Source: Candidatus Nanohalobium sp.
GTDB lineage: Archaea > Nanohalarchaeota > Nanosalinia > Nanosalinales > Nanosalinaceae
Assembly (NCBI GenBank): GCA_042217615.1
Contig: JBDGSI010000040.1
Coordinates: 1-28,622, forward strand
Direction: 5' to 3'
Length of the DNA: 28,622 nucleotides
In this document: positions 59 through 17,181 of the stretch, piece by piece
How positions within the stretch are numbered: position 1 is the first letter of the stretch
How the letters are laid out: each line of letters begins with the position of its first letter
The notes under the pieces: generated by a model
What the model was told of the DNA's origin: nothing
Databases searched by the model: none
The model's input: only the letters and a program-made list of their open reading frames with translations
Position numbers and translations under genes: made by a program

Positions 59-925
59 GTGATTGAACTTGGTTTAATGCTGGCGGCTTTCCTGGCGTTT
101 ATGAAAGGGTTTCAAAGCGTCTATGAAAGGAAAGGCGCGGTAAGTACGGATGAGTTTGTAACTGCGTGGGCTTCAAGAGCCTTCGGAGTGCCGGTGCTTC
201 TGGCAGCAGTCCTGATACAAGACCTTCCTCCGCTTTCCACAGAATTCTTTATAGCGGTGATTCCTCAAAGCCTGGCGATCACTGCTGCATCTGTAATAAT
301 AGCGAAGGCCTTTAAGGAGTCGGATGCGTCGATAGTTACGCCGATGTTTGCTCTTTCACCTGTTCTCGTACTTATAACTTCTTTTGTGGTTCTCGGCGAG
401 GTTCCAAGCCTTTCAGGGGTTATAGGTGTAGGCCTTGTAGCGGCAGGTGCTTATTCCATGAAGATTGAAGGGTCGCAGCATGTTTTGCAGCCTTTCAGAA
501 GGCTTTGGAGTGAGAAAGGGGTTCAACTGATTCTAACTGTGATAATGCTTTACTCTGTGACTTCTGTGGTGGATAAAATAGGGGTTAAAAGTTCAAGCCC
601 TGCTGTATGGTCGTTCTCGGTCGTAACCCTTTCCTCGATATTTCTCTTCCCGGTAATGACCAGGAAATCCGGAGAATGGAGGAAGAAGCTGAGAACTGAC
701 TGGAAACCTCTTACATTCCTAGGAGGGATAGGAGGAGCCGCAGCAATAGTACAGATGACAGCGATCAAGCTTACCCTTGTCACCTACGTAATATCAATCA
801 AAAGACTCAGCATCCCGCTCACAGTAATCCTCAGCTACCTGCTGCTTGGAGAAAAAGAAAGCATCAAAGGAAGGCTCCTCGGCGCAGCCCTGATGACTGC
901 AGGAGCACTCATGATAATCCTATAA
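59..925 (+). CDS. EamA/DMT family transporter
   Basis: 288 aa, about 10 hydrophobic helices in two repeats. DMT-type motifs ASIVTPMFALSPVLVLITSFVVLGE and SIPLTVILSYLLLGEK. GTG start. Confidence 0.9.
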   Translation: MIELGLMLAAFLAFMKGFQSVYERKGAVSTDEFVTAWASRAFGVPVLLAAVLIQDLPPLSTEFFIAVIPQSLAITAASVIIAKAFKESDASIVTPMFALSPVLVLITSFVVLGEVPSLSGVIGVGLVAAGAYSMKIEGSQHVLQPFRRLWSEKGVQLILTVIMLYSVTSVVDKIGVKSSSPAVWSFSVVTLSSIFLFPVMTRKSGEWRKKLRTDWKPLTFLGGIGGAAAIVQMTAIKLTLVTYVISIKRLSIPLTVILSYLLLGEKESIKGRLLGAALMTAGALMIIL

Positions 926-6658: not shown

Positions 6659-7342
6659 TTACTTGTCAATAAATGAATGGATTTTTTGAAGGGCTTCAGG
6701 TTGTTTAGAAGGCATTACCTCAAGAACTACTGGCCCTGAATATTCGTATGTTTCTAAAAGGTCAACGATTGCTTTGATATTTACTGTTCCTTCTCCGAGC
6801 GGAACGCCATCATTTTGACGAGTCCCATCAGCTAAGTGGATTACGGGTACTTCGTTAACAGAATAATTCTGTAGTAAGGCCTCAATAAATGGAAGATAGG
6901 TTTCCTCGCTCATGTGTATATGTGCGGTATCCAAGACGAGAGAGTGCTCATTTGACAGATGGAAATTTCTAAGGTAGTATTTGCTTACACTTGGATCGTT
7001 TTCATATCCTACTGTCTCAGCAACTGCATCAGAGGAAGGGTAAACTTTCGGTGCGTACCTTGTACCTATAGGATTGGAGTCAAAGATAAGAACGGCTGAA
7101 AGCTTAGCTGCAATCTCATCCGCTTGACGGAAGTAAGGCCTTGGATCTGTATCTGCTTCAATATGTGGAGTATGTACGGAAACAATTTGGCCTGCAGAGT
7201 CTTGACAAACTTCAATAATTTCATCCGCTGAATTGTTTTCCAATTGGGTTTCTGTCAGGTATAGTTCAAAATGGTCGAATCCTTCATTATACAGCTTTTC
7301 AAATTTCTTTTTTTCAGGAGGAAGTTTTCCTGCGATTTTCAT
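6659..7342 (-). CDS. Sugar phosphate isomerase/epimerase (AP endonuclease 2 / xylose isomerase-like TIM barrel)
   Basis: Motifs SVHTP, YEN, VLDTAH, VIHLAD, PLGEGTVN and VVLEV. Confidence 0.8.
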   Translation of the reverse strand: MKIAGKLPPEKKKFEKLYNEGFDHFELYLTETQLENNSADEIIEVCQDSAGQIVSVHTPHIEADTDPRPYFRQADEIAAKLSAVLIFDSNPIGTRYAPKVYPSSDAVAETVGYENDPSVSKYYLRNFHLSNEHSLVLDTAHIHMSEETYLPFIEALLQNYSVNEVPVIHLADGTRQNDGVPLGEGTVNIKAIVDLLETYEYSGPVVLEVMPSKQPEALQKIHSFIDK

Positions 7343-7379: not shown

Positions 7380-8246
7380 CTATCTCTGTTCTCTGTTGAT
7401 CAGGCTCCACATCTGGGTGAAGGAGGAGAAGAAGTCCTGATCTGTTGGTATCTGAATGAATTCTGCACCGTTTCTGAGTGCGCTTTCACGGATTTTCTCG
7501 GTGTGGCCTTCTAGTTTATCCCGGTATTTTTCCTTGGTGCGGGGGGAGAGATAGGTTCTCAGCTTTGAACTTGATTCAGGGTCTTTAAGGATTGCATCGC
7601 CTTTAACCTCTGGTTCAAGCTCTGTACTGTCGAGGACGTTTACGAGCACTGCGTCTGTGTGCTGCAGGCTTTCCAAAGCTGTTTCCACGTTTTCTGTATC
7701 TGTTAGGAAATCGGATAGGATTATGACGACAGATTTGTTTTCTATCCTGGATGAGTAGTCTGTTATACATCTTTCTATCCTGCTTTCAGGGGTTTTCCGC
7801 AGGTGGTTTAAGCTGTCTACCAGGCTTGCAAGGTCTCCGTGGCGTCTGGCTGCTGTCAAGTCTGTAAGTGTTTCAGAGAAAACTGAAAACCGGAACCGGT
7901 CATTGGTTTTTGATGTCATGTAGGCAGCGCCGATAGCCAGTTTAGCAGCGTACTCATACTTGTTGTTCTTACCGTAATCCATTGAACTGCTTCTATCTAA
8001 GAGTATGTGGACTGTAACGTTCTTCTCCTCCTCGAAGCGTTTAATGTAGAAGTCGTTTGTCCTGGCGTAGGCCTTCCAGTCAATCTTCCTTATGTCATCG
8101 CCTGGAACGTATTGTTTATGGTCTTTGAAAATCATTCCCTGTCCTGTACGCTGGCTTTTCTGCTCTCCTTCCTTTATCTCTGTAGAATTCTTTTTTAACG
8201 CGGTGTGAAATGTTTTAAGCTGTTCTAGGAAGTCAAGCTCTATCAT
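7380..8246 (-). CDS. DUF58 family vWA-domain protein (MoxR partner)
   Basis: GQGMIFKDHKQYVPGDDIRKIDWKAYAR signature; intact MIDAS motif LLDRSSSM and IILSDF. Confidence 0.92.
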   Translation of the reverse strand: MIELDFLEQLKTFHTALKKNSTEIKEGEQKSQRTGQGMIFKDHKQYVPGDDIRKIDWKAYARTNDFYIKRFEEEKNVTVHILLDRSSSMDYGKNNKYEYAAKLAIGAAYMTSKTNDRFRFSVFSETLTDLTAARRHGDLASLVDSLNHLRKTPESRIERCITDYSSRIENKSVVIILSDFLTDTENVETALESLQHTDAVLVNVLDSTELEPEVKGDAILKDPESSSKLRTYLSPRTKEKYRDKLEGHTEKIRESALRNGAEFIQIPTDQDFFSSFTQMWSLINREQR

Positions 8247-9190
8247 AGCTGGTGAACTATCTCTTTGATGATCTGGTCTTCATCTTTTCCTTCTTTCTCG
8301 GCTTTGAAGCTGAGGCCTATTCTATGGCGTAGAACCGGTTGAGCCATCGCCTTGATATCTGATATTGAGACGTGGTTTCGTCCTTCGATTAAGGCCTTGG
8401 CTTTAGCTGCTAGTACAAGGTTCATTGAGGCTCGGGGGGAGGCTCCGTAGTCAAGTTCTTCCCTGTTTCTGGTGTTTCTAACTACTTTGACTGCAGATTC
8501 TCTTATGTCATCTGCTATAGGTACTGAACGTGTGAATTCCTGAAGTTTTACCAGTGAGGGTTTGGATAGGACTTTTTCCAGGTTTGGTGAGTAGTTGAGT
8601 TCTTCTGTGAACCGTTCTACTATCTTTGTTTCTTCGCTGGAGCTTGGGTAGTCCAGTTTTACTTTCATCATGAAACGGTCTCTCTGTGCTTCCGGTAGTG
8701 GATATGTTCCTTCCTGTTCGATCGGGTTCTGGGTGGCCATTAAGAAGAATGGGTCTTCCAAGTTGTAGCTTTTGTTTCCTACTGTCACCTGTTTCTCCTG
8801 CATTGCTTCCAGCAGTGCGGACTGTGTCTTCGGCGTTGCACGGTTGATCTCATCCGCTAAAACCATGTTGGCGAAGATAGGGCCTTTCTGGAAGACAAAC
8901 TCGTTTCCTTTTTCTTCATCTATTATATGGGTTCCTGTAATATCGGAAGGCATAAGGTCTGGAGTGTTCTGAATCCTGGAGAACTCCAGTCCCATGACTT
9001 TTGAAACTGTTCTAACCATTTTCGTCTTGCCCATTCCCGGGTTTGACTCCAGTAAAATATTTCCGTCACATAGGATTGAAACTAGGAGCTGGTCCAGTAC
9101 TTCTTCTTGACCTACCATTACTTTCCCAACTTCTTCCCGGATCTCCGCAAGCTTACTGTTAGCCTTCTTGTACTTCTCCGGTTCAGCCAT
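8243..9190 (-). CDS. moxR: MoxR family AAA+ ATPase
   Basis: Walker A ESNPGMGKT, RIQNTPDLMPSDITG, Walker B LADEINRATPKTQSALLEAMQE, ATQNPIEQEGTYPLPEAQRDRF and ASPRA. The second Met (9190) is preferred as the start. Confidence 0.95.
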   Translation of the reverse strand: MAEPEKYKKANSKLAEIREEVGKVMVGQEEVLDQLLVSILCDGNILLESNPGMGKTKMVRTVSKVMGLEFSRIQNTPDLMPSDITGTHIIDEEKGNEFVFQKGPIFANMVLADEINRATPKTQSALLEAMQEKQVTVGNKSYNLEDPFFLMATQNPIEQEGTYPLPEAQRDRFMMKVKLDYPSSSEETKIVERFTEELNYSPNLEKVLSKPSLVKLQEFTRSVPIADDIRESAVKVVRNTRNREELDYGASPRASMNLVLAAKAKALIEGRNHVSISDIKAMAQPVLRHRIGLSFKAEKEGKDEDQIIKEIVHQL

Positions 9191-9254
9191 ACTGTTAATC
9201 TCCACAGAAAAACACATCCATCCAGCTATTTAAATTCAGAGCAGATCAACTGCT

Positions 9255-10007
9255 CTACCTCTCAAAACTCTTGATCGCCTCGCTATACTTCCTCGCAAGC
9301 TCCAAGTTCTCAGGCATACGAGGATTAGACACAGTAAAACCTGTATCCCCACTTCCGTCATACCTGTAAAACCCTCTCTCCGAAGTATTACCTCCTCCCC
9401 GAATCCTGACAGAGATATTCATGCTTGCATCAATATTCTGAGACTCTCCAATAATCTGCGTACCGTTCTTAAGTTCAACTTCATCAACACCACCCTCTTC
9501 AGAAGAACCAAGATCTTCAAAACCCTTCAAAACTTCGGTAGGGTTCTTCTGAATCTGCAGATCAGCCATACCGGATAAAGCAGTCAAAAAACTTAAAGCA
9601 CCTACCACAAGAATCTTCTGAATAATAACCTTGCTTGGAACAATACTGTCAGAAGTCACTTTCCGGGCACGGTCAATTAAATCATCGAACAAGGCCTGAG
9701 AAGCAACATCGCTCTTCTCAAGATTGTCTCTTGCCGTCCTAAGAATTTCCCGGAGCTCAGGATTCTCCTCCTCATAAATTTCCAACCTGTAATTCCTGGT
9801 CCTATGAATAAGATCTCCTACGAAGAAAATAAGCGCCAAAGGAGCCAGGATTTTAGCGTTTTCGTACCCGGCCACTAACCTGATTGAGAAGAAGAAAGTT
9901 ACAATGTTTAAGATTAGGAAAAGCCCTATAGAATCCAGTGAGGCCTGTATAATATTTACTTTGATAAATTCTCTTCTAAGCCGTTTCAGGAGTTTTTCAA
10001 CTCTCAT
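9255..10007 (-). CDS. Membrane protein of archaeal MoxR/DUF58 clusters
   Basis: Two N-terminal TM helices and a third TM (IIQKILVVGALSFLTALSG), then a polar C-terminal region with sequons. Lies immediately upstream of moxR on the same strand. Confidence 0.7.
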   Translation of the reverse strand: MRVEKLLKRLRREFIKVNIIQASLDSIGLFLILNIVTFFFSIRLVAGYENAKILAPLALIFFVGDLIHRTRNYRLEIYEEENPELREILRTARDNLEKSDVASQALFDDLIDRARKVTSDSIVPSKVIIQKILVVGALSFLTALSGMADLQIQKNPTEVLKGFEDLGSSEEGGVDEVELKNGTQIIGESQNIDASMNISVRIRGGGNTSERGFYRYDGSGDTGFTVSNPRMPENLELARKYSEAIKSFER

Positions 10008-10014
10008 TTTGGAT

Positions 10015-10485
10015 TCAGTACCCCAGGTTATCGCATTTTTCGTTGCCTTTGTCTGTCAGGTTGCCGTTGCTGCAGATATAGTTTAAGGCCTCTGACATGT
10101 TAGCAGTTCTCTGATCCTGTCCTTCGATTTCCTGCGTTAAGTTCTGAATTTTCTCATCTTTTGTATCAATCTTGGTTCTAAGCTCTTTGACTGTACTGTT
10201 TTTACTGCTTAAACGGCTTTTAATACTTGTTAACTGGCTTTTCAGGTTTGAAATGCTTCTATTCATGGATTTAATCTTTCTTGTCAGGTTTTCTTTTTCA
10301 ACTTGAAGACGGTTAACCTGATCTCTCTTCTCCTCAAGTGACTGTGTCAAGTTTTTTTTGGAGGTTACCAGGTCGTTTAACTGTGACTGGTACAGTACGG
10401 AGAGACCTGCCAGAAGCGACAGCACTACAACTGTTGAAATCAGTAGAAAAGGATTCAGACGTCGTTTAAGTAGAGATGCAGCCAT
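10015..10485 (-). CDS. Membrane-anchored long coiled-coil protein
   Basis: N-terminal TM (PFLLISTVVVLSLLAGLSVLY), ~100 aa of heptad repeats and a terminal Cys pair. Confidence 0.8.
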   Translation of the reverse strand: MAASLLKRRLNPFLLISTVVVLSLLAGLSVLYQSQLNDLVTSKKNLTQSLEEKRDQVNRLQVEKENLTRKIKSMNRSISNLKSQLTSIKSRLSSKNSTVKELRTKIDTKDEKIQNLTQEIEGQDQRTANMSEALNYICSNGNLTDKGNEKCDNLGY

Positions 10486-10625: not shown

Positions 10626-12269
10626 ATGAGCCACGGCGGAGATCTCCCGGATACCTGTAAATTTGGCCATGTTTTCCAGATACCTGGGAAAGCGGAGAAA
10701 GGCCTTAGTGGTGCCTGGGCGGATGCGAAGTCAAGGATTGAAAGCGGGGAGATCAGGGATCTCTATGATTTGGAGAGCGAGATGGGTACTGACACCTTGA
10801 TGCCTCTGCTGGGAAGTCACTGGAAGAAGGTTAAGGTCTCTGCTGGAAGCCAGGGAACTCCTTACGGATTTGTATTAACTGCTGCAGACTGGTTCGATGA
10901 GCATAAGGGTTACACAGTTAACAGGACGGAGGAGGGGATTTACGTGGCTCCTCAAAGCCAGTTGCATGACTCTTTTATGCAGAGAAAGCAGCAGGCAGAG
11001 CAGAGAGTTAAGGAAAACATGCGTAATATATCTGAATTGATGAAGCAGAAGCACATGCTTGAACATGATATCAGAAAGCTGCGTTCCCGGGCTGAAGCAA
11101 TGAGTGAGAAGGATGAAGCCGTTTTGAAAGGAGATTTCGTTGAACTGGTTGACGGCGCTGGGGGAGGCCAGCAGGGAGGTGATGAGGCCTCACTCAAATT
11201 TTTGAGAGACCAGAACATTTACCCGTCGATTGTATCAGATTTCTACGAGATGGAATCCGTAGACGATCTTAAGTACGCTGATCAAAGAGATGACGATAAG
11301 GACGGGGTTCTAGCGGATAGGCCTAAGAATGAGAAAGCTATACTGAAGAGAAAGTACACGATGTATGAGAAATGGAAGGATCTGTACGGCTCTGAGGTCA
11401 ACAGGAAGCTTGAGGAGTTGAAAGGCCAGTTGAAAAGTATTGAAAGATCTATAGAGGAGACCAAGGAGTGGCTGGAGCCTTACGTCAAAGACATGGTTCA
11501 GATCAACAAGATGGGCGATCTACAGGATGATCAGACAAAGTATTATGAGTGGAAAGGAAACTCCTCCCTACAGAGAAACCTTGAATTCATATGCTACAAG
11601 CCTCTGGTGAAAGAGGAAGGAGATATAGTCGTAACCGACAATGAAGAGGAGGCCACACATTTCAGAATAGTGTATATTCACGGCGTCCACGTAAACCTTG
11701 CTAACCCGGAGCAACCTGAGTCACCTGCTGATGGGCCTTCAAGCGGAGTGGTGATGTGGTTCCCAGCAGTTGTCTGCCGCCACGTATGGGAACGGTTCTT
11801 CAAAGCCAAAGTCGAAAAAGCCCAAAGCCAGACAGAACAACTGATGAAAGACTACACAGGAGAATTCGAGACAAAAGAAGGCGAAAAACTGAAAGAAGCC
11901 CGGAAAGAAAACGACATGAGTGTCAGAGAGCTTAGAGAAGCCATGCAAGAAGAAATAGACGAAGAAATACCTTTAGAAGGATCTGCCAAGATAAGAAGAA
12001 TAGAAGACGGCCTCGACCCTGTAACAGTACTTAACGAAGACTACATTGAGGCCTTAACCACTGTACTAGACAGCCTTGAACTCGGTGATGAATCAAAGGA
12101 TGAGGAAATGATAGGCGGTATTGAAAAAACCTTGAAGAAGTTTGCAGGCCTTACAGATCCCTATGTAATTCCTAGTGGAGCAGATCCCTTAGGAGATTTG
12201 ACGGATGATATGTGGTACAATTATTACTGGGATGTGAAGCAGAACTTTGGCCTTTACACTATGAAATAG
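10626..12269 (+). CDS. Hypothetical 547 aa protein with coiled coils and a C-terminal XRE-like HTH
   Basis: Long ORF with acidic composition. Coiled coils at ~aa 115-160 and 255-290; HTH-like segment at aa 419-482. Confidence 0.85.
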   Translation: MSHGGDLPDTCKFGHVFQIPGKAEKGLSGAWADAKSRIESGEIRDLYDLESEMGTDTLMPLLGSHWKKVKVSAGSQGTPYGFVLTAADWFDEHKGYTVNRTEEGIYVAPQSQLHDSFMQRKQQAEQRVKENMRNISELMKQKHMLEHDIRKLRSRAEAMSEKDEAVLKGDFVELVDGAGGGQQGGDEASLKFLRDQNIYPSIVSDFYEMESVDDLKYADQRDDDKDGVLADRPKNEKAILKRKYTMYEKWKDLYGSEVNRKLEELKGQLKSIERSIEETKEWLEPYVKDMVQINKMGDLQDDQTKYYEWKGNSSLQRNLEFICYKPLVKEEGDIVVTDNEEEATHFRIVYIHGVHVNLANPEQPESPADGPSSGVVMWFPAVVCRHVWERFFKAKVEKAQSQTEQLMKDYTGEFETKEGEKLKEARKENDMSVRELREAMQEEIDEEIPLEGSAKIRRIEDGLDPVTVLNEDYIEALTTVLDSLELGDESKDEEMIGGIEKTLKKFAGLTDPYVIPSGADPLGDLTDDMWYNYYWDVKQNFGLYTMK

Positions 12270-12282
12270 AGATGATAACTGT

Positions 12283-14988
12283 ATGGCTTTCCTGATTGAC
12301 CGGTTGAAAGAGAAGTTTGATGTAGAGGATGGAGAATATGATAGGGACAGCTTCAACTACAAGGTAGGAAACACTTCTGGCATGGATGTTACACAGCAGA
12401 TCCCCTCCGAGATAGCTCAGAGAGTAGGCCAGATGGCTCAGAGAGGAGGAGGGACGATGGAGATACAGGTGGAGAACCCTACAACTTTCTACATCGACAG
12501 AGAAAGCCTCTACGAAGTAATAGATGGTCTAGGCCTTGACATATCGATTCACAGCGACCCAAACATAGGGTATACCTCTGCCTACAAAACCGGTAGAGGC
12601 AGAGGATTTGATGTGGTGCAGGGATACTTCAGAGACTATCTGGAAAGCTTTGCCTCATTCAAACAGGAGATGAAGAACAGAGAGGATATTAACTTCAAAC
12701 TCAGCAGGATAAACCCTCACGTCTCTACAAGCCCTCAGCCTCCGCTACATGAGAGAATGGCGGATGACGTAGGCCTTGATCCTTTCGGATACAAGATAAG
12801 CGATCTGTCGGAAGAACTGATGGGAAAACGTTCAGAGAAAGGCCAGAACATCTTCAAAAACAAGGAGTTCCTGAGAAAACTGTATCACACATTCCTGCTG
12901 GAAGAAGTAGATTATGACTTCCAGTACTTCAGCCTTTTCGCCCGGTACTCCAAAAAATTCGAGAAAAAATGGAACCAGGCTCAGAGAGAAGCCACAAACG
13001 AATACTACCGCTGGAGAACAAACCCGGAAAACGGGAAAGTAGAAGACCTTACCGAAGCGGTAAGTGCAAAACTCTCCGTCATCAGAACCTCACAGGGCCA
13101 AGACAGAGGGATAGAGACAGCCTGGTTCGAACTCCTTGACAAACACGGCGACACAGAACTGCCTCTACTCAATATAGAGTTCGAACACACTGACGAAAAA
13201 GGCCTACAATGGGACTACACTGTAGAAGAAACAGAAGAAAGCGTAAACAGCATTCTGGCAGGAAGAGAAAACCTGGCGCTGCAAAGAGCGCCTGAGAGGA
13301 TATACAGTCTCAGAGAAAACCCGAAAGAAGTATTCGAAGGACCAGAGACCCGATATAACCCTAATCCCGGTAACCTTTTGATTGAGAGCACCGTTGAAGG
13401 CCTTGAAGACCTTGAGGATGAACAGCAGGGGGAAGTAAGGGAGAAGATTGAAAGGAAGAAGGAGGCGATCGCTGAGGAAGAGGGAATCTTTGAAGAGGCT
13501 GTTAGGGCCTTGGAGGAAAGTCTTGTCGATGCCTTGGATGAGTTGTGGGAGGGGAATGGTGAGGAGGAGATGTCTGTGGATGCCAAGATTGCTGCGTTGA
13601 GCAGCCACTTCGATATTCAGAAGATGAAGATACAGGAGCTGGCGTTTGAACTTGATGAGGAAGGTGAGCTGGAGGAGTCTGCTGAAAAGGTTTTGATGGG
13701 GGAGAAGGAGTACTTTGAGCAGGAAGGCCCTGAGGAGGATATGGGTGTTGATAACCATGCAGAGCTTTTGAGGCATCTGATTGCTTCCAACTTTGAGCAG
13801 CAGATATGGATGGAGTCCAACCTGTTTTACAGGGTTTTTCCGGCGTGGATGAGCTCTGCAGACACAGAGTATCCTGGTCACAACGGTTTCAAGGCCCCGA
13901 AGTTTATCTGGGAGACACTGGTTGAGAGGAAATGGGAGGATCGTTTTGAGCTTGATCTTACGGATGCTAGAGGGGGAGAGGATGAGAAAAAATACTTGGA
14001 TATGCTTGAGGAGAGCGCTGAGTTCCGAAGCGATGTGGCAGCGGCTTCTGCCGCATGCGTGATGTGGAGTCATTTCACGCAGATAGAGCAAAAGTTTGAA
14101 ATGGAAGGAAACCAGTATATTCAAGGTGATAACGGAGTATACACCTGGATCGAATGGATGAACAAGTACGGTATCGGCGTTAACATGGAGGCGATGGCTG
14201 GAAGCCCCAGTGAAAAGTTCAAGCTCTGGAGGCCTAAGGATATCGTGGCAGCATGCAGAGCTGTCAATATCACTGCCAGAGAAGAAGTAGAGGATGGCGA
14301 GCTTGGAGGAAAGGAAAGTATAGATGAGGAGCTGGATGGTTCGCCGGTAAAGTTCACTATAGATATGGAGCACACTGCAGGGTTCGGCGTAGACCCATGG
14401 GAAGAAATGGAGAAGCTTATAGAACAGGAGAAATGGCTGGCAGAACAGGATTTCAACGTCAAAGTCGACAAAGACAAACCTTTAGCCCATATAGTAAGGA
14501 TGTACCACCTTACCAAGCCAGGCCTTGAAACAAGCCAGGGAACAGGACACACCCATGGACCTTTCAGAAAAGGAGATGTAGAACTCTACGAATGGCTTTA
14601 CAACATGGCAGAGGCAGGATTCGCACAGAACCCCGGTGAGGAAGCCTCCGTAATGTACGAGGTAGGAGGGGAGCAGACAGCTACAGTGGTTCAGGCACAG
14701 CTGGCGATGGATATGATAGAGCTTGGAATATCTCCTGACGAGCTTGACCCAAGCAAAGTCGACCCAGATACACCGCATGAAGATGAAAAAGAAGCTTTAA
14801 TGGCAAAATTCTTCAGAATGGACCGTCCGAACTACAACAGAGAATGGGCAAAAATCGAAGAACACGCATTCGACCCTCTTGACGGCCTTCTGCAGGCTCA
14901 AGGCTTCGACTTCACCTGGTCCGGCAACGCTGCAATACAGCAAGGAGAAAACCGGCCAAACGAATGGAAACAGGAAGAATACCAGTAA
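12283..14988 (+). CDS. 901 aa endonuclease IV / xylose-isomerase-like TIM barrel metalloprotein with a large insertion
   Basis: Ordered metal-ligand motifs ISIH(90), INPH(146), GIGVNME(636), FTIDMEH(694/697), MYHL(742), GHTHGP(756/758) and VMYE(793). Starts 13 nt after the 547 aa gene. Confidence 0.75.
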   Translation: MAFLIDRLKEKFDVEDGEYDRDSFNYKVGNTSGMDVTQQIPSEIAQRVGQMAQRGGGTMEIQVENPTTFYIDRESLYEVIDGLGLDISIHSDPNIGYTSAYKTGRGRGFDVVQGYFRDYLESFASFKQEMKNREDINFKLSRINPHVSTSPQPPLHERMADDVGLDPFGYKISDLSEELMGKRSEKGQNIFKNKEFLRKLYHTFLLEEVDYDFQYFSLFARYSKKFEKKWNQAQREATNEYYRWRTNPENGKVEDLTEAVSAKLSVIRTSQGQDRGIETAWFELLDKHGDTELPLLNIEFEHTDEKGLQWDYTVEETEESVNSILAGRENLALQRAPERIYSLRENPKEVFEGPETRYNPNPGNLLIESTVEGLEDLEDEQQGEVREKIERKKEAIAEEEGIFEEAVRALEESLVDALDELWEGNGEEEMSVDAKIAALSSHFDIQKMKIQELAFELDEEGELEESAEKVLMGEKEYFEQEGPEEDMGVDNHAELLRHLIASNFEQQIWMESNLFYRVFPAWMSSADTEYPGHNGFKAPKFIWETLVERKWEDRFELDLTDARGGEDEKKYLDMLEESAEFRSDVAAASAACVMWSHFTQIEQKFEMEGNQYIQGDNGVYTWIEWMNKYGIGVNMEAMAGSPSEKFKLWRPKDIVAACRAVNITAREEVEDGELGGKESIDEELDGSPVKFTIDMEHTAGFGVDPWEEMEKLIEQEKWLAEQDFNVKVDKDKPLAHIVRMYHLTKPGLETSQGTGHTHGPFRKGDVELYEWLYNMAEAGFAQNPGEEASVMYEVGGEQTATVVQAQLAMDMIELGISPDELDPSKVDPDTPHEDEKEALMAKFFRMDRPNYNREWAKIEEHAFDPLDGLLQAQGFDFTWSGNAAIQQGENRPNEWKQEEYQ

Positions 14989-14993
14989 ACTCG

Positions 14994-15788
14994 CTAGAAA
15001 ACTATGTCAGTAAAACGCGAAGCCAGATCCTTACCTAAGTCCTTAACCCTCTGCCAGTAACCAGAATCATTATTCTTAAACCGCTCCATACTCAACTTCC
15101 TCTGCAAAACCCTGTCATCACCGACTACAGAAGCACCAGCAACCATATAACTATTTTCACCGCCGTCCACACCTCTAACACTGTAGTCAAAGTCTTCTCC
15201 AGACTCAAGATCCAAGGGTCCAGGCCAGTAATCCAAAACACTGTGCAGAGGCCTTGTAAAACCTTTCAAATCTGCTACAGAATGCAGAGCGCCTTTAACA
15301 CTGCCCTTCCAAGGAGAAACCCGGAAATCATCAAAACCGTCAAAACCGGTTAAATAGCCGTCATCAAGGCCTTCAAGACCTAAACGTTTCGAGGCCTCGA
15401 AACTGGTACGAGGCACGTTATAATCCGTTGTAAACATCAAAAGATTTCTGCCTTCATCACGCAGCTCCTCTAAAGCCTCTAAATCCTCAGCTCTACTCCC
15501 GCTGCCATCATAATCTATTTCCTCTACGTTAACGTCCAAGGCCTCTTCAACATCTTCAACATAGTCAGGCATAGCATAGACTGTGCCGTTAAAACCTATC
15601 TCCTCTAAAGCCCCGATACTCTGCTCCAGATAAACGTCTTCCTCGTAATCAGGTACACCCAGAAGAGCGGCGTCAAGGCCTTCATCCTGCCTCTCAGACA
15701 GATAGCCTCTAACCTTTTCACCGTTGAACTCTTCATCGAATCCTTCACTGTTCCTGACATTTGGAGGAGTAAGCATTTCCTCTATCAT
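14994..15788 (-). CDS. Hypothetical acidic protein, possibly a degenerate DUF218/YdcF-like fold
   Basis: 264 aa ORF with strong D/E bias. LLMFTTDYNVPRT resembles the DUF218 VTSxYHxPR motif. Confidence 0.7.
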   Translation of the reverse strand: MIEEMLTPPNVRNSEGFDEEFNGEKVRGYLSERQDEGLDAALLGVPDYEEDVYLEQSIGALEEIGFNGTVYAMPDYVEDVEEALDVNVEEIDYDGSGSRAEDLEALEELRDEGRNLLMFTTDYNVPRTSFEASKRLGLEGLDDGYLTGFDGFDDFRVSPWKGSVKGALHSVADLKGFTRPLHSVLDYWPGPLDLESGEDFDYSVRGVDGGENSYMVAGASVVGDDRVLQRKLSMERFKNNDSGYWQRVKDLGKDLASRFTDIVF

Positions 15789-15869: not shown

Positions 15870-15913
15870 GGAAAGGTTTTTAAGTTTGCGTCAAGTATGG
15901 TTCTGTATAGGTG
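15870..15913 (+). promoter_or_regulatory. BRE/TATA plus Shine-Dalgarno for the nucleotidyltransferase gene
   Basis: GGAAAGGTTTTTAAGT (15870-15885) and AGGTG (15909-15913), the latter 8 nt before ATG 15922. Confidence 0.65.
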
Positions 15914-15921
15914 TTTGGAAA

Positions 15922-17181
15922 ATGAGTTCTAAGGATAAGATGAAGGAGATGCGTGAGAAGTCTCAGGAGAGGCGGATGGAGTCTGCTGAGGAGTTCTCAA
16001 GTAAGCTTAATGAAAAGCTGGGCGATAAAGTGAAGGTTGTAGCTGTCTGGGGTAGTGTCGCGAAAGGAGAGCACGGCCATGACTCTGATATCGATACTCT
16101 TGTCGTTTTAGATGATACTAAGCTTCAGAAAGATGTTCCAAAAGATGCTAAGAAGAAAATCAGGAAGAAGGTTACTCAGCTTGCCAAAGATACGGATGAC
16201 AGGATAACTATACAGTACTTTCCGTTCCTGACCGAGTTCTGGGATGCTCTCAGGAAAGGAGAGCCTCTTGCAATCGAAGCAGTGCGTAACGGAGAACCTG
16301 TCTACGATACAGGCATCTTCATGCCCGCCAAGAGACTGCTGGAAAGAGGTAAGATTACAGGCACCCGTGAATCGGTGAAGAAACGTCTTAAAATGGGTGC
16401 AGCAGGCTACAAGAAAGCTGAGAAAAACTTGAGATCCTCCATCCCGCATAAACTGGAGCAGGCAATGGCAAACGCTGGTCAAGCACCTATCATGCTTGCG
16501 GGAAAGAAACCTCCAGCAAAGGAGAACGTACCGGATACGCTGGAGGAAATGTTCGTGGAAAAAGACATGCTCGAACAGGAGTACGTTGACAAAGCCCGTG
16601 AAATATTCGAATTCGGAGACCTGGGAGAAAAGAACCCGGAAGAAGTCAAAGGAGGAGAAATCGAGGAACACATGCAGAAAACAGATGACTTCGTCCGCAG
16701 AATGCACAAACTTGTCTCACAGCTTGGCTCCAAGAAAAAAGTACAGAACATCGTACAGGACTACAAAAAATTCCTTAAGGCAAACGTCGCCGCACTCAAA
16801 AGCAAAGGCGTAACACCGCCAGAAGACAAAGAAGACCTTCCGGAAACTGTCGCAGAAAACCTGGACGTAGACGAAGAACACGTAGAAATGTTCAACCAGT
16901 GGGAAAAAGTCATCCAGAAGATAAAAGACAAAAACATGGACGAAGTCGACGAAAAAGAACTCTACGAACTCAAAAACCAGACAAGAGAATTCGTATCCAA
17001 CGTCGGCGAAGACCTCCAGAAAATGAAGGAAGAAGAACAGAAACAAGCAGAAAACATGACACCAGACATGGACCCATCATCAATCGCCAAAGCAGCCGAC
17101 CCAGACGAAGCAGTACCCAACCTAGAAGAAAAAGCGGAAAAAGAAGCAGAAACAGAGGAAAGCAAAAAAGAACAAGCCTAA
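15922..17181 (+). CDS. Minimal nucleotidyltransferase (Pol-beta family) fused to a HEPN-like helical domain, with acidic C-terminal extension
   Basis: WGSVAKGEHGHDSDIDTLVVLDD (GS...DxD motif), followed by a HEPN-like four-helix region. The start is set at ATG 15922 because the TTG at 15886 abuts the TATA box. Confidence 0.85.
   Translation: MSSKDKMKEMREKSQERRMESAEEFSSKLNEKLGDKVKVVAVWGSVAKGEHGHDSDIDTLVVLDDTKLQKDVPKDAKKKIRKKVTQLAKDTDDRITIQYFPFLTEFWDALRKGEPLAIEAVRNGEPVYDTGIFMPAKRLLERGKITGTRESVKKRLKMGAAGYKKAEKNLRSSIPHKLEQAMANAGQAPIMLAGKKPPAKENVPDTLEEMFVEKDMLEQEYVDKAREIFEFGDLGEKNPEEVKGGEIEEHMQKTDDFVRRMHKLVSQLGSKKKVQNIVQDYKKFLKANVAALKSKGVTPPEDKEDLPETVAENLDVDEEHVEMFNQWEKVIQKIKDKNMDEVDEKELYELKNQTREFVSNVGEDLQKMKEEEQKQAENMTPDMDPSSIAKAADPDEAVPNLEEKAEKEAETEESKKEQA

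Follow-up and report, generated by a model that had tools for sequence, protein, structure and literature searches.

The question raised by this locus is what kind of enzyme results when the metal-binding residues of endonuclease IV (EndoIV, also called Nfo) are kept in their usual order while the barrel that carries them is interrupted by an insertion of nearly 500 residues. The gene concerned, P0001, is an open reading frame (ORF) with an ATG start that lies at positions 12283-14988 of the forward strand and encodes 901 amino acids plus a stop codon. It was found in a stretch of 28,622 nucleotides from Candidatus Nanohalobium sp. (contig JBDGSI010000040.1 of GenBank assembly GCA_042217615.1), and this whole stretch is called the window in what follows. 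The G+C content of the window is about 45%, its proteome is acidic, an A-type ATPase operon is among its genes, and the nearest protein relatives of its proteins are all from Nanohaloarchaeota; the locus is also present in a DNA sequencing run from a salt-lake metagenome. Conservation and structure prediction indicate that P0001 is a real and likely active metal enzyme related to EndoIV, whose barrel is split by a domain of about 486 residues. As to function, the chances appear about even that the family is a metal-dependent phosphoesterase whose substrate is probably nucleic acid and which works together with a partner protein encoded directly upstream and perhaps with a nucleotidyltransferase (NTase) encoded downstream.

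The trinuclear zinc site of E. coli EndoIV is formed by H69, H109, E145, D179, H182, H216, D229, H231 and E261. The original prediction, made by a model from the letters of the window, had proposed H90, H146, E636, D694, H697, H742, H756, H758 and E793 as the corresponding residues of P0001, and all nine were confirmed in the translation. A word-indexed homologue search gave 142 relatives, nearly all of 790-930 amino acids, which are annotated as hypothetical without exception and, where the organism is named, all belong to Nanohaloarchaeota. In an alignment of 49 Nanohaloarchaeota homologues, H90, H146, E636, D694, H697, H742, H758 and E793 were invariant, and the same was found for E60, N65, N144 and E696. 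Through an exhaustive phmmer search, the set was extended to distant relatives of 500-850 amino acids; in the resulting alignment of 28 sequences, which reaches down to 20% identity, H146, E636, D694, E696, H742, H758 and E793 were still invariant, H90 was histidine in 27 of the 28 sequences, and H697 was histidine in 26 and glutamine in two. The eight ligands other than H756 are invariant or nearly so in three alignments. These patterns support strong purifying selection on the metal-ligand set, and hence an active metalloenzyme is likely.

The claim that eight of the nine EndoIV ligands match was borne out by these alignments, but the proposal that H756 takes the place of D229 was not, since the position is not conserved. 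H756 lies two residues before the invariant H758, where the aspartate of the D-x-H motif of EndoIV would be expected, and a motif count over 42 Nanohaloarchaeota sequences gave histidine in 22, threonine in 17 and serine in 2; in the Aenigmatarchaeota-type clade, the residue is mostly threonine. Because of this variability, a change from aspartate to histidine describes P0001 alone, and it is the family that has lost the aspartate. Measured against the full set of nine EndoIV ligands, P0001 keeps eight positions and has histidine, threonine or serine in its family at the D229 position. The Zn1-type ligands (H90, H146 and E636) and the Zn2-type ligands (E636, D694, H742 and E793) are all retained, whereas only two of the three Zn3-type ligands (H697 and H758) are kept, and an additional invariant glutamate, E696, adjoins H697. 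The incomplete third metal site might suggest that the barrel is catalytically dead and that P0001 is a scaffold, with the work being done by the insert and the partner; the insert also accounts for over half of the protein and is predicted to fold alone. This reading is highly improbable, as H146, E636, D694, H742, H758 and E793 are strictly invariant, and H90 and H697 nearly so, to 20% identity across phyla, the extra invariant E696 is situated in an active-site strand, and it is the N-terminal two thirds of the insert that are least conserved.

AlphaFold2 (AF2) was run on P0001 with the alignment of 49 sequences and gave a model with a predicted local distance difference test score (pLDDT) of 85.8 and a predicted template modelling score (pTM) of 0.81. 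The model contains a complete (β/α)8 barrel with strands at residues 26-31, 58-62, 86-90, 140-143, 633-636, 689-694, 738-742 and 788-792, each of which is followed by a helix. The order and β-strand contexts that had been claimed for the ligands agree with the model, in which they are placed at or just after the C-terminal ends of strands 3-8, and the barrel topology, taken with the alignments to EndoIV, predicts that the nine residues cluster in one site. The low-confidence parts of the model are the loop 748-757, which holds H756, and the tail 863-901 (both with pLDDT below 50). On comparing the model with 48,161 representatives of the PDB by VIA-align, it was found that the top match was E. 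coli EndoIV (1qtw_A), with a Z score of 18.4 and a root-mean-square deviation of 3.3 Å over 260 of 285 residues, and that this match spans the insert (model range 25-819). Further EndoIV structures followed (2x7w, Z 17.9; 3aam, Z 17.5), and the top 50 matches were all members of the xylose-isomerase-like superfamily or closely allied barrels. The barrel fold and the E-D-H-E core at strands 5-8, where E636, D694, H742 and E793 are invariant, place P0001 in this superfamily. A search of the AlphaFold DB clusters with the whole model gave only unnamed members of its own family. The check that had been proposed, a predicted model followed by structure search, yielded a complete barrel with EndoIV as the best solved match, although Foldseek itself gave half-barrels only.

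The same structural comparison brings in a different class of enzymes. Within 1 Z unit of EndoIV were the Art22 isomerase (Z 18.3), the D-tagatose-3-epimerase-like MJ1311 (3wqo; Z 18.2) and a D-allulose epimerase (Z 18.2), the best matches in Foldseek, weak as they are, were L-ribulose and D-psicose 3-epimerases, and several relatives are named 'sugar phosphate isomerase/epimerase' by JGI. P0001 could on this evidence be a sugar or sugar-phosphate isomerase, epimerase or dehydratase with an E-D-H-E metal site, the extra histidines being accessory. The original claim of an active metallo-hydrolase was upheld as likely for its metalloenzyme part by ligand conservation, while hydrolase chemistry stays a prediction, as the sugar epimerases and isomerases tie structurally with EndoIV. 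The H90/H146 pair of Zn1 type and the H697/H758 pair of Zn3 type are, as we take it, a signature of EndoIV and UvdE, unlike the four-ligand site of the epimerases.

Sequence profiles point to EndoIV by several routes. Distant family members pass the Pfam family PF01261 (AP_endonuc_2) with 58, 48.8, 35.4 and 34.3 bits, the cut-off being 31.1 bits, and the match in them falls into two pieces, one N-terminal and one C-terminal; neither P0001 nor any of 48 close homologues matches this family. A profile of 41 Aenigmatarchaeota-type members had EndoIV of T. maritima (2x7v) as its best PDB sequence match, with an E value of 2e-4 and an alignment that covers the two N-terminal histidines plus the E, D..H and H motifs. 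When the Nanohaloarchaeota and Aenigmatarchaeota-type profiles were compared by hhalign, a probability of 100% and an E value of 1e-38 were obtained, with coverage of residues 515-901 only. The Aenigmatarchaeota-type profile with the insert cut out aligned over the whole barrel with 26 canonical Nfo proteins of Nanohaloarchaeota (probability 94.7%, E 5.6e-8), and a broader alignment gave a full-length match to Nfo (E 5.7e-4) in which each ligand fell on its Nfo counterpart. H90 and H146 align on the equivalents of Nfo H69 and H109, and the C-terminal half aligns with the Nfo motifs LLEN, CIDTCH, HLND, D-x-H and LETP. A PDB search with the Nanohaloarchaeota profile returned no more than matches of the insert to designed helical proteins, and these were treated as noise. 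An assignment to sugar metabolism is unlikely in view of these alignments, since both histidine pairs fall on Nfo ligands and the best PDB sequence-profile match is EndoIV; moreover, a near-universal single-copy sugar enzyme would be odd in metabolically minimal DPANN genomes, and the constant company of a large helical partner and of NTases of the MNT-HEPN type, both described below, does not suit a sugar pathway.

The insert (residues 147-632; 486 residues) follows strand 4 and is acidic and mostly helical. Modelled on its own (residues 150-630), it reached a pLDDT of 91.2 and a pTM of 0.85, and it is, as far as AF2 predicts, an autonomous, self-folding domain. It is composed of about twenty short helices, the longest of some 23 residues, and a long β-hairpin at 290-320. 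The original prediction had placed an acidic helical region of coiled-coil character at about residues 150-625, between the second and third ligands; its location, acidity and helicity were confirmed, but a compact domain of short helices is not a coiled coil. In Nanohaloarchaeota, the equivalents of H146 and E636 are 392-513 residues apart, and in the sister clade, about 248. Residues of about 176-500 are lineage-specific and the least conserved part of the protein, with a hypervariable segment at 351-400, whereas residues of about 505-632 are conserved across phyla and include the invariant W543 and the near-invariant H597; E511 and W522 are invariant within Nanohaloarchaeota. The fold of the insert matches nothing outside its own family in the PDB or AlphaFold DB: the best VIA-align match to the PDB was a death-domain-like bundle with a Z score of 5.7, which is below the noise level for helical proteins, and the Foldseek search with the insert alone that had been suggested recognised no known fold (E values of at least 0.2), the AlphaFold DB clusters giving its own family only. 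The most conserved stretch of P0001 is found in the C-terminal extension, at residues 851-875 (EWAKIEEHAFDPL), with a conservation of 0.84.

It was found that the split-barrel gene is present as a single copy in 65 of 70 genomes of Nanohaloarchaeota, the phylum of the window, these being all the genomes of it that were searched; the count is 28 of 28 among high-quality genomes and 52 of 52 among genomes at least 80% complete. In a second DPANN phylum, in which the metagenome-assembled genomes (MAGs) labelled Aenigmatarchaeota fall, 150 of 151 genomes at least 80% complete carry it as a single copy. Near-universal single-copy presence is the pattern of a core gene and of neither a defence nor a mobile element. 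PADLOC gave no defence-model match for P0001 or for its upstream partner, and a defence-system reading was rejected on this ground together with the distribution. One orthologue in the window's phylum (genome G008, contig C4, 16153-18576) contains an in-frame TAG, for which a sequencing error, a pseudogene or recoding are possible.

A canonical Nfo of 280 amino acids is encoded in the same genome (contig C69, 3071-3835; locus L001, 1489-2331, minus strand), and canonical Nfo was found in 29 of 31 related genomes searched. All nine zinc ligands, the aspartate included, are invariant in 26 canonical Nfo proteins of the window's phylum (that of the same genome and 25 from related ones). The idea that P0001 replaces a lost Nfo was accordingly rejected, as a complete canonical Nfo is present. 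A separate ORF of 227 amino acids in the window (6659-7342, minus strand) matched the AP_endonuc_2 profile in its C-terminal half only (46 bits; positions 142-239 of 249). ORFs of about 180-250 amino acids that match this half only occur in several related genomes, and the gene is not at the syntenic spot in Ca. Nanohalobium constans or in a Nanosalina MAG; it may encode a truncated or very divergent xylose-isomerase-like protein.

The genes around P0001 recur with it (Table 1). The stop codon of the upstream partner gene P0002 and the start codon of P0001 are separated by 13 nucleotides in the window. No match for P0002 was found in Pfam, NCBIfam or the PDB, a profile of the partner family likewise had no match in the PDB, and an ESM Atlas search with the partner gave no usable match. 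The invariant motifs of the partner family are H147-D148-x-R150, D176, D205-F206 and W250. The order P0002, P0001, NTase is common to the window, Ca. Nanohalobium constans and the Nanosalina MAG (Nanohaloarchaeota loci L004 and L005) and occurs also in distant loci. In Ca. Nanohalobium constans, the three proteins have the accessions QGA80692, QGA80693 and QGA80695. In the second phylum, 80 species-level loci were examined with hidden Markov models built for the partner and the NTase. Of the 66 loci with enough flanking sequence, 57 have the partner gene as the immediate upstream neighbour on the same strand, and in many of these pairs, the stop and start codons overlap or nearly touch; in 43 of 54 loci, the 4.5 kb downstream contain one or two NTase genes. 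The other neighbours in this phylum are housekeeping genes (ribosomal protein S3Ae, DNA ligase, Obg-like GTPase and TFIIB), to which little weight was given because the window does not share them.

Table 1 Coordinates in the window of the split-barrel gene, its parts and its neighbours
Feature	Position	Strand	Basis
Upstream partner gene P0002, 547 amino acids, α-helical	10626..12269	+	ORF and translation
EndoIV-like split-barrel gene P0001	12283..14988	+	ORF, homologues, AF2 model, structure search
N-terminal barrel half, residues 22-146, predicted strands 1-4; H90, H146 and invariant E60, N65, N144	12346..12720	+	DSSP of AF2 model, conservation
Insert, residues 147-632	12721..14178	+	Full and insert-only AF2 models, conservation profile
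C-terminal barrel half, residues 633-820, predicted strands 5-8; E636, D694, E696, H697, H742, H756, H758, E793	14179..14742	+	Conservation, model, Nfo motif alignment
C-terminal extension, residues 821-901	14743..14985	+	Conservation, model pLDDT, mapped interface of orthologous pair
Downstream NTase, 431 amino acids, NTP_transf_2 and helical C-terminal part	15886..17181	+	Pfam PF01909, 41.7 bits

The NTase of the window is 32% identical to the NTase that neighbours the module in Aenigmatarchaeota (E 2e-59), and its orthologues have HEPN or HepT-like matches in the C-terminal part. That it is a CCA-adding enzyme was rejected, as the canonical one (PF09249, 127.5 bits) is encoded on contig C44. 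In the sections of Makarova, Wolf and Koonin (2019; PMC6393860) drawn on here, two dark-matter clusters of DPANN archaea are described as 'MNT fused to HEPN' (cls.004259/NEQ050) and 'alpha helical protein' (cls.004340/NEQ484). Likened by description, the NTase of the window probably belongs to the former type, and P0002 might correspond to the latter.

Several further genes were observed near the module. An antisense ORF of 264 amino acids (14994-15788, minus strand), with no Pfam or PADLOC match, lies between P0001 and the NTase; at this place, Ca. Nanohalobium constans has an ORF of 200 amino acids, and the Nanosalina MAG has none. A divergent block on the minus strand of the window (7380-10485) encodes a coiled-coil protein of 156 amino acids, DUF7502, a MoxR AAA+ ATPase and a DUF58/VWA protein; the block is syntenic in two other Nanohaloarchaeota and is no part of the module in the second phylum. 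In 48 of the 80 loci of that phylum, a tandem pair of paralogues of about 170 amino acids without a Pfam family precedes the EndoIV-like gene by about 3.8 kb (for example L007, 1746-2765, and L039, 1583-2597, both minus strand), and in 19, a DNA ligase gene lies about 5.5 kb downstream of it.

Physical association of the two adjacent proteins was examined by complex prediction with an orthologous Aenigmatarchaeota pair, consisting of an enzyme of 574 amino acids and partner residues 1-420. The ipSAE value was 0.44 versus 0.00 for the best control, which was rated as weak support. Of 80 solved complexes, 58 reach the mark applied, and so do 2 of 110 mismatched pairs, but among results that reach it at an ipSAE of at most 0.60, there are only 7 of the 80 solved complexes and both of the passing mismatches. 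The confidently predicted contacts of the enzyme are residue 516 and residues 525-545, which hold the motif REHAWDPL and correspond to about residues 850-870 of P0001; on the partner, residues 132-143, 189-201 and 239-265 are involved, and these regions include its invariant motifs. In both proteins, the contact sites coincide with the motifs that are most conserved, and the insert is not implicated. Hence, of the earlier suggestion that the insert provides substrate or partner recognition, the partner part was not borne out by this weakly supported model, in which a C-terminal motif makes the contact and the insert is left untouched. A complex of P0001 with its partner is considered likely, given the strong prior that comes from the gene order.

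A barrel with a fixed partner recalls another group of proteins. The multinuclear iron oxidases (MNIOs; DUF692) are TIM barrels whose iron ligands occur in the EndoIV order H, H, E, D, H, D, H, E, and they need O2. MbnB of the MbnABC complex (7fc0_B) was among the structural neighbours of P0001 with a Z score of 14.8. MNIO enzymes use multinuclear iron and act with partner proteins (10.1101/2025.01.10.632315; PMC10214503), and P0001 also has a fixed partner, so that it could be an MNIO-like enzyme that modifies a peptide or protein with the help of an obligatory partner. This is very unlikely. MbnB ranks 49th, 3.6 Z units below EndoIV; DUF692 was unmatched at E values up to 1 in 49 members and up to 0.1 in 20 distant members, PF01261 being the only family matched; no conserved gene for a short precursor peptide was found in the module; and many hosts of the family are known from groundwater and sediment MAGs, which are assumed to be often anoxic.

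It is proposed that P0001 may act as the catalytic subunit within a gene module belonging to the core of DPANN archaea. The EndoIV-like barrel would provide a di- or tri-metal phosphoesterase site, and the most likely substrate would be a phosphodiester in nucleic acid or a 3' end that is damaged or blocked. The upstream partner would be bound through the conserved C-terminal motif EEHAFDPL of P0001, a joint function with the neighbouring NTase of MNT-HEPN type may exist, and the insert, judging from the barrel topology, would have to sit over the catalytic mouth. A more specific version holds that the barrel, the partner and one or more MNT-HEPN NTases form an essential end-processing machine specific to DPANN, which cuts or cleans an end and adds nucleotides, with the insert serving as a substrate-selecting lid; this is speculative and rather improbable. 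If true, the machine would be without counterpart among described repair or RNA-processing complexes.

A number of results weigh against the phosphoesterase proposal and the EndoIV relationship on which it builds. The P0001 sequence had no match in Pfam, NCBIfam or the PDB, and direct hhalign comparison of the Nanohaloarchaeota profile with Nfo, whole or with the insert cut, was not significant; for these reasons, the EndoIV assignment rests on transitive homology and predicted structure. Sugar isomerases and epimerases come within 1 Z unit of EndoIV, which amounts to a tie, and Foldseek with the whole model found only weak half-barrel matches to epimerases in the PDB (E values of at least 0.018). 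The equivalent of the D229 aspartate is missing or variable in the family, and the H756/H758 loop is modelled at low confidence. The complex prediction is a weak pass obtained with orthologues and a shortened partner, and gene order counts for less than it seems to when the genomes of a phylum are small and syntenic. With a canonical Nfo present, a plain apurinic/apyrimidinic endonuclease role for P0001 would be redundant. Finally, a search of sequencing runs found the locus in no RNA run.

The significance of the family lies in its retention. A gene of 2.7 kb is kept in nearly all genomes searched of two phyla of symbiotic DPANN archaea with tiny genomes, mostly beside the same partner, and near-universal retention in such genomes argues for a central role. 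Its relatives carry the label 'hypothetical' or 'sugar phosphate isomerase', the latter probably in error. No description of a split-barrel family was found in the literature on DPANN, and the portions of PMC6393860 used here mention neither the EndoIV-like protein nor the three-gene module. With defined residues, a domain of unmatched fold and a candidate complex of three proteins, the module offers a testable entry to DPANN-specific core biology, and the candidate complex includes a family that the same portions of that survey call 'top priority' dark matter (Makarova et al. 2019).

Among known systems, the MNIO/DUF692 enzymes (MbnB-MbnC) resemble P0001 in combining a TIM barrel with an obligatory partner subunit, the partnership being predicted for P0001, and differ from it in the lower structural score (Z 14.8), the absence of a DUF692 sequence signal and the lack of a precursor peptide gene in the module. 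The xylose-isomerase-like epimerases and isomerases (MJ1311/3WQO, D-psicose and L-ribulose 3-epimerases) share the same barrel (Z 17.6-18.3), and their E-D-H-E core corresponds to E636, D694, H742 and E793 of P0001. These sugar epimerases are proteins of about 260-300 amino acids with no insert; they are not known to carry the two N-terminal histidine ligands or the H...H pair of the third site, nor to be encoded beside genes like those of the partner and the NTase. From EndoIV (Nfo/Apn1; 1QTW, 2X7V), which is a compact single domain (about 285 amino acids; range about 250-300), P0001 is set apart by its 901 amino acids, the 486-residue domain after strand 4 and the C-terminal extension of 80 residues, by the loss of the conserved aspartate of D-x-H and the gain of the invariant E696, and by obligate neighbour genes and the absence of a direct Pfam match. 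The likeness to EndoIV, in turn, consists in the (β/α)8 barrel, for which EndoIV is the best structural and PDB sequence-profile match, and in eight of nine metal-ligand positions, whose order and places at the strand ends are retained.

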